Positions 59,261-64,000 of a stretch of 64,000 nt of DNA are shown here, piece after piece. Every line of letters begins with the position of its first letter. The first letter of the stretch is position 1. The notes beneath the pieces were generated by a model. That model worked only from the letters and a program-made list of their open reading frames with translations. It was not told the DNA's origin and did no database searches. Made by a program: the position numbers and the translations under genes. Source of the DNA: an uncultured Lachnospiraceae bacterium (GTDB taxonomy: Bacteria; Bacillota; Clostridia; Lachnospirales; Lachnospiraceae); assembly GCA_947626715.1 (NCBI GenBank), contig CANQTG010000003.1, positions 2,707-66,706 of the forward strand, in the 5' to 3' direction.

Positions 59261-59385
59261 GGGCCTCTAGGGCTGCCAAAGGAACGGCCCGCCGTCTCCG
59301 CCGTTCTCTCTTTTGCCCCTCTTCCCATTGAGAGAGCCTTTAGGGCTGCCAAAGGAACGGCCCGCCGTCTTTGCCGCTCTCTCTC
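59261..59385. repeat. Direct repeat (73-bp period) duplicating the 3' end of nrdG
   Basis: The 30-bp identical core tagggctgccaaaggaacggcccgccgtct is at 59268-59297 and 59341-59370, with similar flanks. Confidence 0.85.
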
Positions 59386-59867
59386 ATCCGCTTTAGATCG
59401 ATGATACGCTGATTGCCCGAGCCCCGAAACGCAAGGGTCAGATCCTTCTGCGATTCCACAAACGGCCCGTCCACCAAAACGTCGCACAAGGCCAGAAAGC
59501 TGTCCGTGACCCCGCACGCCGCCCTGCCTCCCGGAAGGAAATCCTCATACCGATACCCGCTGTAGAGCCACACGTCCTTTTGGGGCAGCTCCCCGCGCAC
59601 CCGCATAAGCAGCGGAAGGAGCGCCTCTTGATTTTCCGGCTCGCCGGGATCGCCGCCCAAAAGCGTCAGTCCCGCGATATAGGGCGGGGACAGCAGCTCT
59701 AGGAGCCGCTCCTGCGTCTTTTCTGTAAACGGCTCTCCATAGGAAAAATCCCACGTTTCCTGACTAAAGCAGCCCTTGCAGCGATGGGTGCAGCCGGAAA
59801 CGAACAGAGAGACTCTCACGCCCGGGCCGTTTTCAATGGTAAACGGCTTGATCCTCCCATAATACAT
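59340..59867 (-). CDS. nrdG: Anaerobic ribonucleotide reductase activating protein
   Basis: NGPGVRVSLFVSGCTHRCKGC, LGGDP, DVLVDGPF, FRGSGNQRII. Confidence 0.95.
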   Translation of the reverse strand: MYYGRIKPFTIENGPGVRVSLFVSGCTHRCKGCFSQETWDFSYGEPFTEKTQERLLELLSPPYIAGLTLLGGDPGEPENQEALLPLLMRVRGELPQKDVWLYSGYRYEDFLPGGRAACGVTDSFLALCDVLVDGPFVESQKDLTLAFRGSGNQRIIDLKRMRESGKDGGPFLWQP

Positions 59868-59879
59868 GGCTTCCCCGTT

Positions 59880-62036
59880 CTACAGGTGCAGGACGCGTTC
59901 CCGGATCTCCTGCGTCCTGCCCTGATTCCAGAACTGCGTCCCGATATAGCCGCAGGTACGGCGCGCTACGTTCAGCGTCTCCTGATCGCGGTTCCCGCAG
60001 TTGGGGCATTCCCATACCAGCTTGCCGCCGTCGTCTATGATCTGGATCTCGCCGTCATATCCGCACGCCTGACAGAAATCGCTCTTGGTATTGAGCTCCG
60101 CATACATGATATTGTCGTAGATAAAGCGGATCAGCGTAAGCACCGCCGGGATATTGTCCTGCATATCCGGCACCTCCACGTAGCTCACCGCGCCGCCCTT
60201 TGAGAGCGCCTGAAATTCCGCCTCGAATTTCAGCTTGGAAAAGGCGTCGATCTGCTCCGTCACCTTCACGTGATAGCTGTTTGTGATATAGCCCTTGTCC
60301 GTAACGCCCTCGATTATGCCAAAGCGCCGCTGTAAGCATTTAGCGAACTTATAGGTCGTACTCTCGATCGGCGTGCCGTAAATGCTAAAGCAGATGTCCG
60401 TCTCCTGCGTCCACTTATCGCAGGCCCGGTTCATATATTTCATAACCTCTAACGCGAAGGGCTTCGCGGACGGGTCCGTATGCGATTTCCCCGTCATGTA
60501 CCGCACGCACTCGCACAGTCCGGCATAGCCTAACGAGATCGTAGAATATCCGCCGTAGAGCAGCTTGTCGATCTTCTCCCCCTTTTTCAGCCGCGCCAGC
60601 GCGCCGTACTGCCAGAGGATGGGCGCAGCGTCCGACAAAGTCCCCTTTAAGCGCTCGTGGCGGCACATCAGCGCCCGATAGCACAGATCCAGACGTTCGT
60701 CAAAGATCTGCCAGAATTTATCCATATCCCTTCCGGAGGAGAGCGCCACATCGACCAGATTGATGGTCACGACCCCCTGATTGAACCTGCCGTAAAACTG
60801 ATATTCGCCCTTTTCATTTTTCCACGGCGAGAGCGCGCTCCGACAGCCCATGACCGGGAAGCAGTTCCCTTCTTTTAGCTGCTTCATGATCTTCTCGGAG
60901 ATATAGTCCGGCACCAAACGCTTTGCGCTGCACCTTGCGGCTAGCTGCGTCAGATAAAAATATTCCCCGTCCTCGCGGATATTGTCCTCCTCCAGCACAT
61001 AGATCAGCTTAGGAAAGGCCGGCGTGATAAAGGTGCCCTTTTCATTCTTTACGCCCTGAATGCGCTGATTCAGCATTTCCTCGATGATAAGGGCCAGATC
61101 GCGCTTCTCCCGTTCGTTCTTCGCCTCGTTTAAATACATGAACACCGTCAAAAACGGCGCCTGCCCGTTCGTCGTCATCAGCGTGATGACCTGATACTGG
61201 ATCGTCTGCACGCCCTTTTCGATCTCGCTGTGCAGACGCTTTTCCACGATCTTATGCAGCACCTCTTCGGAAGCCTCTGCGCCGAGCATTTCCATATCCT
61301 CTAGGACTTCCCTGCGTATCTTCTCCCTCGATACCTGAACAAAGGGCGCTAAATGCGTCAGGGATATGCTCTGTCCCCCGTACTGGCTGCTGGCTACCTG
61401 CGCGATGATCTGCGTCGCGATATTGCACGCCGTCGAAAAGCTGTGCGGCTTATCAATAAAGGTCTCGCTGATCACCGTCCCGTTTTCCAGCATATCCTCC
61501 AGATTGACCAGATCGCAGTTATGCATGTGCTGCGCGAAATAATCCGAATCATGAAAATGGATCAGGCCCTCTCTGTCCGCCTTTACGATATCTTCCGGCA
61601 GCAAAAGCCTCCTCGTCAGATCCTTGCTGACCTCTCCGGCCATGTAATCGCGCTGCACGCTGTTGATGATCGGATCCTTATTGGAATTTTCCTGCAGCAC
61701 CTCTTCGTTATTGCACTCGATCAGCGAGAGGATACGGTCGTCCGTCGTATTGCTCTTACGCACCAGAGAACGGGTATAGCGGTAACGCACATAACACCGC
61801 GCCACATTGAACGCTCCCTGCGACATGATCTGATTCTCCACCATATCCTGCATTTCCTCTACGGAAACGGCCCTGTTCATGCGGTTGCATTTGAAATTGA
61901 TATACTCCGCGATCTCCTGAATCTGCTCCTCGCTCAGCTCCTGCCGCACAGCCGCCTTATTCGCTTTCCTGACCGCCGCCTGTATCTTTCGGATATCAAA
62001 ATCCACCTCGGCGCCGTTACGTTTGATTACCTTCAT
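59880..62036 (-). CDS. nrdD: Class III anaerobic ribonucleoside-triphosphate reductase
   Basis: ATP cone (KVIKRNG), HFHDSDY, MGCRS, FNQGVVTINL, C-terminal CQAC/CPNC and RRTCGYIG glycyl-radical motif. Confidence 0.97.
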   Translation of the reverse strand: MKVIKRNGAEVDFDIRKIQAAVRKANKAAVRQELSEEQIQEIAEYINFKCNRMNRAVSVEEMQDMVENQIMSQGAFNVARCYVRYRYTRSLVRKSNTTDDRILSLIECNNEEVLQENSNKDPIINSVQRDYMAGEVSKDLTRRLLLPEDIVKADREGLIHFHDSDYFAQHMHNCDLVNLEDMLENGTVISETFIDKPHSFSTACNIATQIIAQVASSQYGGQSISLTHLAPFVQVSREKIRREVLEDMEMLGAEASEEVLHKIVEKRLHSEIEKGVQTIQYQVITLMTTNGQAPFLTVFMYLNEAKNEREKRDLALIIEEMLNQRIQGVKNEKGTFITPAFPKLIYVLEEDNIREDGEYFYLTQLAARCSAKRLVPDYISEKIMKQLKEGNCFPVMGCRSALSPWKNEKGEYQFYGRFNQGVVTINLVDVALSSGRDMDKFWQIFDERLDLCYRALMCRHERLKGTLSDAAPILWQYGALARLKKGEKIDKLLYGGYSTISLGYAGLCECVRYMTGKSHTDPSAKPFALEVMKYMNRACDKWTQETDICFSIYGTPIESTTYKFAKCLQRRFGIIEGVTDKGYITNSYHVKVTEQIDAFSKLKFEAEFQALSKGGAVSYVEVPDMQDNIPAVLTLIRFIYDNIMYAELNTKSDFCQACGYDGEIQIIDDGGKLVWECPNCGNRDQETLNVARRTCGYIGTQFWNQGRTQEIRERVLHL

Positions 62037-62108
62037 TCCACCCATTCCTCCCCGATCGCTTTCGCCTTATCCGTTCCCCGACCTCTGCCTGCGGAACGGT
62101 TCCTATCT

Positions 62109-62137
62109 ATCATACAAGATATAGTGGGATTTTGCAA
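62109..62137 (-). promoter_or_regulatory. Sigma70 promoter of nrdDG
   Basis: Minus strand TTGCAA (62137-62132), 17 bp, TATGAT (62114-62109). Confidence 0.7.
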
Positions 62138-62159
62138 TAGGAATGTCAAGATATTGCGC
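62112..62159. promoter_or_regulatory. Tandem NrdR boxes
   Basis: ATACAAGATATAGTGG (62112-62127) and TGTCAAGATATTGCGC (62144-62159), 32 bp apart. Both match the acaC(a/t)AtATaT(a/t)Gtg consensus and overlap the nrdD promoter. Confidence 0.85.
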
Positions 62160-62197: not shown

Positions 62198-62920
62198 TCA
62201 ATTCCTGATCTTTTCAAATAATTCCCGGTTAAAGGCGGGTTGGAACGCTTCGATCTGATCCGCGATCGCTTCGCAGCAGAGCTTGACCTCGGGATTGGCG
62301 CTGCCCTTTTCGTTCCTTTCCTTATAGACGTGCGCCCACTCGGTCAGATTGATCTTAAAGATAAAATTGCTCGGTATGCTGAGCATATACAGGCCGCGCT
62401 TTACGTCAGGATCCTCTTTCATCTCTTCCCGGATATAGCCGTTGACGGTTTTGACAAAGATCTCTCCCTCCCGCTCGATCGTTTCCGGCAACTCCATGCC
62501 CAGCAGGGCGAGCGCATTGTCCGTCGTCAAAATCTTCCCCTGATACCACTCCGACATCTCGTCTCCAAAGTCTGCCAGACGGGTGCTGCTGCGTATGATA
62601 CGGTTATTAAAGCGCGCGGCGTGGGAATCCCAGTCGTCCTGTCCCGCGCGGTGCAGCCCCTCCACCGTGACGCAGATATCAATATAGCGCAGCATTGTCA
62701 CATGCCGCCAGCCCCATTTTAACAGGCTTTCCAGCCACTTATGGTACTGCGAGAGCTCCTCCTGCCCCGCCTCCGGCACGATCCTGCCCTGCCTGTCCAG
62801 CACGCGCTCACAGACGCGGCGGATCTCAAGCTCCTTTTCCCTCGTCCATGAGCGTTTGCTCATAAACATCGATACGAATGCATCCGCAATGCCCGTGATC
62901 TCATTTACATAAACCTTCAT
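62198..62920 (-). CDS. Divergent ThyX/Thy1-fold protein (lacks the RHR signature)
   Basis: HxxxL...EGxxR-x8-H, later SxR, and N-x5-H-x4-R-x5-A-xx-E match ThyX spacing by manual alignment. The CDS is clear; the fold call is inference. Confidence 0.6.
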   Translation of the reverse strand: MKVYVNEITGIADAFVSMFMSKRSWTREKELEIRRVCERVLDRQGRIVPEAGQEELSQYHKWLESLLKWGWRHVTMLRYIDICVTVEGLHRAGQDDWDSHAARFNNRIIRSSTRLADFGDEMSEWYQGKILTTDNALALLGMELPETIEREGEIFVKTVNGYIREEMKEDPDVKRGLYMLSIPSNFIFKINLTEWAHVYKERNEKGSANPEVKLCCEAIADQIEAFQPAFNRELFEKIRN

Positions 62921-63031: not shown

Positions 63032-64000
63032 TTATCTTCCTTCTGCGAGCCAGTCCTCCATGAGCAGCCATTTTTCAGGCAGGCGCAGGATCCTGCCCGC
63101 CCGGACTTTATCCGCGTTTTCTATCCCGTTGTACGCCGCCAGCTCCCGGCAGGCCAGCCAGTCCCCCGTATAGCGCCGCGCCAGCTCTGAAAGCGTCTCG
63201 CCCCTCTGCACCCGCACTTCACAGGGAAGATAACGGAAGCAGTCCTCCATGACCGTCTGCGCAAAGGACAGCTCCGGCCGGTAATTATTCTCCCGGTTGG
63301 TAAAGAGCAGCAGATAACGGACCGAGCGTTTCCCTGTAAAATCCTCCTTCACCGGCAGGGAAACGATATTGTCGAGCCGCAGTTTTCCCGTTTCGTCGCC
63401 CTTTACATACGTGTACCAGACCGCGTTCATCTCTTCTTTATAATAGTTAAAAGAACGGCAGGACAGCCCTTTGCCAGCGCCCCGCCATGTATGGTGGTCA
63501 AAGGAATTGGAAAAATCGAGGGGATGCAGCCAGTCCAGACCGTCCACATAGCTCCAGATATGGGAAACATCCGTCTCAACATCAATATCTGCGATAGAGA
63601 ACGCGACCGCCAGCTTTAACCTGTTATCCGACGCCGCAGCCCTGTCGCGCGTAACCTCCTGTCCCCATGCATACGCGGTATCCAGACTCTCAAGCCGCTC
63701 GAGGAATCCGTTCATCTCCTCCTCTTCCCGGGCCGGAAGTCGCAGCACCCAGAGCTGATACCCGCCGGCCCCAGACCCGTACAGCCGCTCCAGCTCCAAA
63801 AGATCGGCGGCAGCGTCCGCCTCCATGCACAGCGCATAGTCCGATACCCTCCTGACCGCAAAGCCCTCCGGCGCGCGCAGGCAGAAATCCCCGCACAGAT
63901 AAGCGTCGTCCCTGCCTTTCGTCATCTCGGATTCTTCTAGGCCGAGCGGAGAAAGATTCAGCTTTTCCGCCGCTTCCTTTAGGTCGAACTGCCAGTTGTT
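63032..64000 (-). CDS. LysM-domain protein, 5' end beyond the window
   Basis: C-terminal LysM (VRVQRGETLSELARRY...LAAYNGIENADKVRAGRILRLP). The frame is open from 64000 (NNWQFDLKE...), so the ORF-track start at 63925 is internal. Confidence 0.82.
   Translation of the reverse strand, partial: NNWQFDLKEAAEKLNLSPLGLEESEMTKGRDDAYLCGDFCLRAPEGFAVRRVSDYALCMEADAAADLLELERLYGSGAGGYQLWVLRLPAREEEEMNGFLERLESLDTAYAWGQEVTRDRAAASDNRLKLAVAFSIADIDVETDVSHIWSYVDGLDWLHPLDFSNSFDHHTWRGAGKGLSCRSFNYYKEEMNAVWYTYVKGDETGKLRLDNIVSLPVKEDFTGKRSVRYLLLFTNRENNYRPELSFAQTVMEDCFRYLPCEVRVQRGETLSELARRYTGDWLACRELAAYNGIENADKVRAGRILRLPEKWLLMEDWLAEGR

Follow-up and report, generated by a model that had tools for sequence, protein, structure and literature searches.

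A divergent ThyX-fold protein with a rewritten cofactor site as a candidate thymidylate synthase of Lachnospiraceae

INTRODUCTION

Thymidylate synthesis is essential, and to our knowledge ThyA and ThyX are the only two enzyme families recognized as performing it. ThyA yields dihydrofolate and needs dihydrofolate reductase (DHFR), ThyX yields tetrahydrofolate, and ThyX organisms often lack DHFR. ThyX is absent from humans and hence is pursued as an antibacterial target. Its RHR motif is, as far as we know, treated as universal, as the anchor for both flavin adenine dinucleotide (FAD) and dUMP (deoxyuridine monophosphate). Here we describe a gene for a divergent ThyX-fold protein in which this motif is gone. 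The gene lies at positions 62198 to 62920, minus strand, of a 64,000-nucleotide stretch of DNA (here called the window) from an uncultured Lachnospiraceae bacterium (GenBank assembly GCA_947626715.1, contig CANQTG010000003.1, positions 2,707 to 66,706). The reading that we favor, with a probability of roughly 0.6, takes the product of this gene to be a working ThyX-superfamily thymidylate synthase that converts dUMP to dTMP (deoxythymidine monophosphate) and is the organism's only source of de novo dTMP.

The best-described relatives are the canonical ThyX enzymes, or flavin-dependent thymidylate synthases (FDTS; PF02511, TIGR02170, EC 2.1.1.148), such as those of Thermotoga maritima (TM0449), Mycobacterium tuberculosis, and Helicobacter pylori. 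The substrate loop is flexible in canonical ThyX, and R147 of the T. maritima enzyme binds the dUMP phosphate. In the M. tuberculosis enzyme, R95-H96-R97, S71, and R190 hold the phosphates and ribityl moiety of FAD; R95, R87, S105, R107, and R199 hold dUMP; and Y108 acts as a lid (PMC6514825). The methylene group is relayed through N5 of the flavin and is then reduced by the flavin (PMC8989533). The distribution of ThyX is patchy, transfer prone, and exclusive with thyA (PMC5954106). PolB, a C5-methylase of dUMP and uridine monophosphate (UMP) in polyoxin biosynthesis, is a precedent for a ThyX fold with diverged specificity (PMC5954106), and it is encoded in an antibiotic gene cluster beside a housekeeping thyX.

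Closer in sequence are the phage "thymidylate synthases" of PHROG 24884, which belong to the same family as the window protein (31 to 67% identical). They include gp68 of Geobacillus phage TP-84, gp42 of Bacillus phage vB_BboS-125, and proteins of Bacillus phages PBC5 and vB_BceS-M2 and of the 133-kb Clostridioides phage ES-S-0107-01. These proteins share the signatures QDDxDxHA, NNRIxRxSTRL, DVKRGL, and ANPE(L/V)K, and their genes are located in nucleotide metabolism and replication modules. Their annotation as thymidylate synthases rests only on a weak Pfam match (PMC5889276). For example, TP-84 gp68 was named from its Pfam match alone; a dUTPase gene adjoins it, and the protein was seen by mass spectrometry during infection (PMC5889276).

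Against this background, the window protein has the fold of canonical ThyX, its core motifs are in the same register, and it keeps both the His of the active site and the ligands of dUMP (R87, S105, R107, and R199 in M. tuberculosis and R147 in T. maritima); its family has the same kind of patchy, transfer-prone distribution exclusive with thyA. Unlike canonical ThyX, the family has neither RHRx7S (reading S/A-H-A, x10, S in its place) nor the arginine of the NxR motif; Leu replaces the Tyr lid, and a 3-residue loop insertion with three new arginines is accompanied by an acidic QDDxDxHA patch. The phage members are longer (~300 to 330 amino acids), with insertions in the N-terminal half and C-terminal extensions, and are accessory genes, whereas in the window the gene belongs to the chromosome and apparently specifies the only synthase. 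In contrast to polB, the window's gene has no antibiotic cluster and no second synthase beside it. ThyA (PF00303) is the proposed functional equivalent, with which the family swaps within one genus and at one locus. The ThyA fold is unrelated, however, and ThyA oxidizes folate and needs DHFR, whereas many carriers of the window's family lack DHFR.

RESULTS AND DISCUSSION

Fold and family assignment

The gene begins with ATG and encodes 240 amino acids. Pfam Thy1 (PF02511) matches the protein at 27.7 bits against a gathering cutoff of 24.8 (E value = 2.9e-6), over residues 56 to 228, equivalent to positions 35 to 190 of the 191-position model; in six-frame searches, many other family members score just under the cutoff. 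The profile phrog_24884 ("thymidylate synthase") matches at 1.6e-73.

PDB sequence searches, with the single protein or with a 24-sequence profile, found no ThyX, and only the fold search did so. The AlphaFold2 model used for this purpose, a monomer without ligands built on the 24-sequence alignment, has a mean predicted local distance difference test score of 82.8, with low confidence only around residues 100 to 125 (including 113 to 118) and 171 to 180. With this model, the top 50 Foldseek matches in the PDB consisted entirely of T. maritima and H. pylori ThyX/FDTS chains (probability 1.00, E values of 7e-6 to 5e-5, template modeling scores of 0.43 to 0.55, and ~14% identity). The best match among viral models was an uncharacterized Bacillus phage protein (33% identity). 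The hhalign comparison of shallow profiles aligned only the C-terminal half, with low probability. On the modeled structure, then, the window protein has the ThyX fold. The model also differs from canonical ThyX in its N-terminal part, and the central helical segment is replaced in it by a segment of ~50 residues with a beta-hairpin.

A retained nucleotide site and a rewritten cofactor site

With MAFFT, we aligned 53 diverse members of the family (down to ~33% identity) with 9 canonical ThyX proteins drawn from related genomes and 2 other variants; in the 24-sequence family alignment, mean column identity was 72%. Residue equivalents below are given relative to M. tuberculosis ThyX unless stated otherwise, counts refer to the 53 members, and all features are on the minus strand of the window.

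The residues expected to contact the nucleotide are retained. The segment K68 to R91 (positions 62648 to 62719) holds H73, T75, G88, and R91. H73 is the equivalent of H69 (H53 in T. maritima; His in 51 of 53), and R91 that of the dUMP contact R87 (Arg in 51/53). In the lengthened substrate loop, R103-F-N-N-R-I-I-R110-S-S112-T-R114-L115 (positions 62576 to 62614), S112 takes the place of S105 (Ser in 51/53) and R114 that of R107 (Arg in 52/53). R175, in "DVKRGL" (positions 62396 to 62398), is placed by the hhalign and MAFFT registers opposite the dUMP-phosphate arginine R147 of T. maritima (Arg in 52/53), and within N191..R202..A208-N-P-E-V212 (positions 62285 to 62350), R202, the equivalent of the dUMP contact R199, is invariant (53/53). 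The set of dUMP ligands is thereby represented by R91, S112, R114, R175, and R202, with the loss of R95, the ligand shared with the FAD site.

The ligands of the FAD phosphates have a different fate. Q94-D-D-W-D-S-H-A101 (positions 62618 to 62641; from the translation and column counts) is a family signature that stands in place of the canonical "..(Q/E)xxRHR." Within it, the first Arg of RHR (R95) is S99, a column of 27 Ala, 24 Ser, and 1 Thr; the His (H96) is kept as H100 (52/53); and the last Arg (R97) is A101, a column of 50 Ala, 1 Val, and 1 Ser. Neither column ever contains Arg. The RHRx7S motif is absent: S99-H100-A101 is followed by 10 residues and then S112. The NxR arginine (R190) corresponds to T193, in a variable column that is likewise never Arg. 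Among the FAD-phosphate ligands, R95, R97, and R190 are replaced, and only S71 is kept, conservatively, as T75 (Thr in 48/53). The lid Y108 is L115 (mostly Leu). The loop from the His to the Ser is 3 residues longer than in canonical ThyX and brings new arginines, R103 (51/53), R107 (43/53), and R110 (52/53), while D95 (50/53), D96 (52/53), and D98 (51/53) are near-invariant acidic residues. As read from these alignments, the nucleotide site is kept, the cofactor-phosphate site is systematically rebuilt under strong constraint, and the conservation pattern is that of a constrained site, not of decay.

These results agree in most points with a preliminary description of the gene, made by eye from the sequence, which had expected a structural match to ThyX; the 50 Foldseek matches supply it. 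The proposed HxSxxEH...xEGxSR register holds in the MAFFT alignment, with H73, E87-G88, and R91 in line with canonical ThyX. The His of RHR does fall nine residues past R91, within S99-H100-A101, and S112-T113-R114 is indeed the SxR after a short insertion, which amounts to 3 residues (x10 versus x7). The claimed match to NxRxxxH...R....A(Q/H)xE stands in part: N191, H197, R202, A208, and E211 fit, whereas the Arg of NxR is lost (T193). The description's overall proposal of a divergent ThyX subfamily that keeps the catalytic Ser and Arg and has changed cofactor contacts is supported by the predicted fold, the register, and the residue conservation alike.

In the mechanism that we propose, a ThyX fold would retain the nucleotide-binding residues R91, S112, R114, R175, and R202 and the active-site His, H73. 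Methylene-tetrahydrofolate would still be the carbon donor and reduced flavin the relay and reductant, and the product would be tetrahydrofolate, not dihydrofolate. The grip on the phosphate and ADP part of the cofactor would have been rebuilt, with small residues replacing the three FAD-phosphate arginines, and R103, R107, and R110 of the longer loop, together with the acidic QDDxDxHA patch, may take over phosphate binding, either directly or via a metal ion. Catalytic activity, the use of a flavin, the parts played by the newly conserved Arg and Asp, and the state of oligomerization are all putative.

Proposed replacement of thyA and canonical thyX

The window's genome (95% complete) contains no thyA and no other Thy1 match. 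The background was the taxonomic family of the window, sampled at one genome per genus, in which thyA was found in 90 of 121 genomes and a Thy1 match in 18 others; 101/120 had at least one of the two, and 19/120 (~16%) had none. Among 50 genomes carrying the window's gene, thyA was present in 8 and a canonical-strength ThyX in 5, with both in one genome, and neither was present in 38. The carriers that do have thyA mostly hold divergent copies in phage-like contexts. Within the window's genus, the gene is present in 10 of 16 species, all 10 without thyA or canonical thyX; one congeneric carrier is a closed genome of 3,188,848 bp. Four of the 6 noncarriers in the genus have one or the other (three thyA, one a tandem double-domain thyX). 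The comparisons gave P values of 9e-14 (Fisher's test, 38/50 versus 19/120) and 0.008 (within the genus), both of which overstate independence, because the carriers are phylogenetically clustered. The two sets also overlap, with six assemblies counted both among the genus carriers and among the 50. The question raised in the preliminary description, whether genomes with this family lack thyA and canonical thyX, thus receives a strongly positive answer, and the phyletic pattern is complementary to those of the other synthases, as is characteristic of the thymidylate synthase class.

A thymidine kinase gene (tdk) was found in only 15/50 carriers, and 26 of the 38 carriers without thyA and canonical thyX also lack tdk and therefore could not use thymidine. 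Cultured organisms among these 26 include Agathobaculum sp. Marseille-P7918, Agathobaculum sp. LCP25S3_E8, Clostridium porci WCA-389, and a mouse Lachnospiraceae isolate.

The exchange can be followed at the DHFR gene (folA). In the noncarrier G175 (locus L109), a conserved 557-amino-acid gene is followed by thyA and then folA, whereas in the carriers G000 (the window's genome; L108, G000:C9:14500-20500) and G183 (L110), the orthologous gene is followed by folA, with thyA absent. The conserved gene encodes 533 to 557 amino acids across G000, G175, and G183. The other flank, which in the carriers has an HtpG-like gene of 702 to 726 amino acids, is not the same in the noncarrier, and therefore the locus has been rearranged.

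DHFR and reaction chemistry

Within the window's taxonomic family, all genomes tested have DHFR, whatever their type of synthase, and adjacency to DHFR is therefore not diagnostic there. Of the 38 carriers that have neither thyA nor canonical thyX, 15 have no DHFR, all tested Agathobaculum genomes among them, and in 12 genomes thyA, thyX, tdk, and DHFR are all missing. Occurrence in genomes without DHFR is a trait that the window's family shares with ThyX. The absence of DHFR favors a ThyX-type, flavin-mediated reaction over one that oxidizes folate. A ThyA-like chemistry producing dihydrofolate had been considered on account of a clade with DHFR directly downstream; it is disfavored, given that 15/38 thyA- and thyX-less carriers have no DHFR and that the window's taxonomic family has DHFR throughout, with any type of synthase.

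Gene neighborhood in the window and in relatives

In the window, the ThyX-like gene is followed on the same strand, after a 152-bp spacer, by nrdD (positions 59880 to 62045, minus strand; NF006732, 934.7 bits; PF13597, 2.5e-193), encoding anaerobic ribonucleoside-triphosphate reductase, and then by nrdG (positions 59340 to 59867, minus strand; TIGR02491, 174.8 bits), encoding the radical-SAM activating enzyme of NrdD. The predicted promoter region of nrdD (positions 62109 to 62159, minus strand) has a sigma-70-like site, with a -35 element at 62137 and a -10 element ending at 62109, and two NrdR-like 16-mer boxes, CCCACTATATCTTGTA at 62113 to 62128 and GCGCAATATCTTGACA at 62144 to 62159. The cores of the boxes are 32 bp apart, and both boxes overlap the predicted promoter-like site. 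No terminator-like site was found between the ThyX-like stop codon and nrdD, an Rfam search of the region returned no element, and the 111-bp spacer upstream of the ThyX-like gene itself contains no NrdR-like box. The ThyX-like gene thus lies just upstream of an nrdDG pair with NrdR-like boxes, and genes for the anaerobic supply of deoxynucleoside triphosphates (dNTPs) are therefore clustered. Coordinates and box positions bear out the earlier statement that the gene is directly upstream of nrdDG and outside the putative NrdR-boxed promoter.

Upstream of the ThyX-like gene, at a distance of 111 bp, is a gene for a LysM-domain protein (positions 63032 to 63925, minus strand; PF01476). The same gene precedes the ThyX-like gene, in synteny, in close relatives (L008, L013, L014, L017, and L018) and has no evident functional link to it.

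Of 75 loci searched by tblastn, 16 have a same-strand nrdD downstream and 11 have nrdG; when open reading frames (ORFs) were clustered instead, nrdD was placed in 18 loci and nrdG in 10, plus the window. No other neighbor recurs as often as nrdD. Several of these loci belong to other lineages, where NrdD is only 27 to 32% identical to that of the window; therefore, the link arose or was kept more than once. This recurrence, with distant NrdD proteins in distant lineages, strengthens the preliminary argument that the nrdDG position speaks for a role in dNTP metabolism. Pfam searches identified DHFR directly downstream in one Lachnospiraceae clade (L027, L045, L046, and L049) and, at other loci, proteins resembling dNMP kinases, guanylate kinases, and nucleoside 2-deoxyribosyltransferases, as well as class II ribonucleotide reductase (RNR); a RecD2 helicase and an HNH endonuclease are also among the Pfam-confirmed neighbors. 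With nrdD/nrdG, DHFR, dNMP kinase, class II RNR, dUTPase, and others, the surroundings are those of dNTP metabolism, and the neighborhood overall points to deoxynucleotide supply.

In several close relatives (L007, L010, L017, L018, L074, and L081), a gene for a Crp/Fnr-type regulator stands between the ThyX-like gene and nrdD. This ORF, of ~207 to 261 amino acids, is on the opposite strand, carries cNMP_binding and HTH_Crp_2 domains, and is missing from the window. The two genes that it separates therefore form a neighborhood and not a fixed operon. At another locus (L072:9922-11579), the NrdD match extends over only 283 amino acids and is immediately followed by an ORF for an HNH/AP2 endonuclease; a homing endonuclease may have split this nrdD, which would be part of a phage-like module.

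Distribution and phage members

More than 2300 homologues were found in a large protein collection, most without a name and some labeled "hypothetical protein," while copies in Clostridioides difficile are annotated "FAD-dependent thymidylate synthase." Among ~185,000 species-representative genomes, those of 75 species, anaerobes of the gut, carry the gene. They include many Lachnospiraceae, Agathobaculum, Oscillospiraceae, termite gut Defluviitaleaceae and Turicibacter, Clostridium porci, [Clostridium] polysaccharolyticum, Gastranaerophilales, and one Bacteroidales metagenome-assembled genome (MAG). In the one-per-genus sample, 1 of 121 genomes carries it, that of the window's genus only. The phage copies included in the alignment, TP-84 gp68 and vB_BboS-125 gp42, bear the same rewritten signature as the cellular ones.

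In a maximum-likelihood tree, the window's Lachnospiraceae, Agathobaculum, and the DHFR-linked Lachnospiraceae form host-coherent clades; a further clade mixes phyla (L061, L063, L065, L068, and L070) and fits phage-like modules. The idea that the gene is a phage passenger does hold for the mixed-phylum clade. For the window's clade we reject it, because the chromosomal LysM - gene - (regulator) - nrdDG synteny is common to close relatives and the clade is host coherent. We propose that the family spread horizontally, partly on phages, and took the place of thyA or thyX in several gut lineages of the Clostridia; in the window's lineage, the gene would have come to lie just upstream of the nrdDG genes and their predicted NrdR boxes.

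Weighing the alternatives

A number of observations weigh against a working synthase. The TIGR02170 thyX equivalog model scores 26.8 bits against a cutoff of 87.9, and the protein is therefore not a canonical ThyX. The RHR arginines are regarded as key ligands of FAD and dUMP (PMC6514825), and their loss could mean that activity is lost or changed. Two genomes of the window's genus, G171 (97% complete) and G184 (88%), have no thyA, no canonical thyX, and no member of the window's family; they may be thymidine auxotrophs, may have yet another synthase, or may have assembly gaps. With such genomes in the genus and in ~16% of the taxonomic family, the absence of thyA and thyX is by itself no proof that the window's gene does the work of the missing synthase. 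Most carriers are MAGs, and the clustering of carriers and the six shared assemblies noted above further reduce the weight of the counts. The window's genome itself has tdk, and salvage is therefore possible there; the gene is split over two contig ends (G000:C130:1-204 and G000:C110:6719-7036), which looks like an assembly break and not a pseudogene. Finally, our literature search, with most subscription journals outside it, found no assay of any member of the family and no paper that characterizes the family or notes the loss of RHR, although the family is known to Pfam and PHROG and is sometimes automatically named thymidylate synthase.

Several other explanations were weighed. The rewritten site invites the idea of a thymidylate synthase whose cofactor chemistry is unlike that of ThyX, using flavin mononucleotide (FMN) or another flavin, a metal site on DDxDxH, or folate as reductant, as in ThyA. 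The replacement of all FAD-phosphate arginines in 53/53 members, the near-invariant new residues D95, D96, D98, R103, R107, and R110, the change of the Tyr lid to Leu, and the DHFR gene directly downstream in one clade (L027, L045, L046, and L049) would fit such an enzyme. We nevertheless consider it unlikely, since the flavin- and folate-side His (H73) and T75, the equivalent of the Ser at the FAD phosphate, are conserved and the three new loop arginines could simply re-create phosphate binding; a reaction producing dihydrofolate is further countered by the 15/38 thyA- and thyX-less carriers without any DHFR, and DHFR adjacency says little where DHFR is present regardless of the synthase type. 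Another possibility is a pyrimidine-nucleotide C5-modifying enzyme, such as a PolB-like methylase of UMP or cytidine monophosphate or a hydroxymethylase acting in phage DNA modification, in place of a housekeeping synthase. ThyX paralogues of altered specificity exist (PolB; PMC5954106), the family is present in phages, and the surroundings of the active site are rewritten. An enzyme of this kind, however, would leave unexplained why the gene and thyA or thyX exclude each other in cellular genomes and why thyA has been cleanly lost where synteny is kept; known hydroxymethylases of phage hypermodification are of the ThyA type (PMC8989533), the recurrent neighbors include no antibiotic biosynthesis genes, and the dUMP contacts are kept. 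We regard it as quite improbable. Of the two options in the preliminary description, a thymidylate synthase and a new nucleotide-modifying enzyme, the synthase role is much better supported.

The least probable explanation, in our judgment, is that the carriers are auxotrophs for thymidine or thymine or have an unrecognized synthase and that the protein is a ThyX-derived nucleotide-binding regulator or pseudoenzyme. Cofactor-binding residues regarded as essential are gone, close relatives without a synthase exist (G171, G184, and ~16% of the taxonomic family), and nucleosides may be supplied in gut habitats. Yet 26/38 thyA- and thyX-less carriers also lack thymidine kinase, substrate-binding and many other positions are very strongly conserved across phages and cells, the gene anticorrelates with thyA and thyX instead of simply being added to them, and phages put it beside dUTPase and dNMP kinases. 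A working ThyX-superfamily synthase therefore remains our preferred reading. Within it, one bolder version is that the enzyme no longer holds FAD in the canonical way and uses another flavin (FMN or a freely exchanging one), a metal-bound pyrophosphate, or electrons from a partner protein. We put this forward only tentatively and think it rather doubtful; if true, it would be a third mechanistic flavor of thymidylate synthesis, serving as the sole source of dTMP in common gut commensals.

Other ThyX variants

A second ThyX variant without RHR, of ~225 amino acids, was read in six genomes (L088-L090 and L092-L094; G018, G072, G116, G030, G003, and G040). It reads "...REWYTHIGGAPTRLQASTRY...", with T-H-I at the place of RHR and x9 before the Ser; its C terminus is Cys rich ("PKCDxxGxCTEKKSCGR"), and Pfam Thy1 matches it with E values of 1e-33 to 1e-36. 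None of the six genomes has a thyA match, and another genome (G106; locus L091, whose sequence was left out) has only a weak thyA fragment. This variant, too, is probably the sole thymidylate synthase of its genomes.

A third variant, of ~260 amino acids, reads "TRHQNEVK(Y/F)MSASLQY," with R-H-Q and no Arg after the Ser (L095-L098; G097, G096, G049, and G015). It likewise has a Cys-rich C terminus, reaches as many as four copies in a single genome (G096), and is in every case accompanied by thyA. It looks mobile or phage borne and may have a different function. In addition, a congener without the window's gene encodes two tandem Thy1 domains in a single 496-amino-acid frame (L105; G180:C13:86907-88124), apparently a fused double ThyX.

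Significance

If the favored reading is right, the gene, which is often annotated "hypothetical," fills the gaps left by "missing thymidylate synthases" in metabolic reconstructions of Lachnospiraceae, butyrate-producing Agathobaculum, and Oscillospiraceae. It would also mean that the ThyX scaffold tolerates a complete rebuilding of its cofactor site, which bears on the mechanism of the enzyme and on whether ThyX inhibitors would spare commensals. The window's genus, moreover, would be a clear-cut natural case of gene displacement, with thyA, thyX, and the form found in the window replacing one another.

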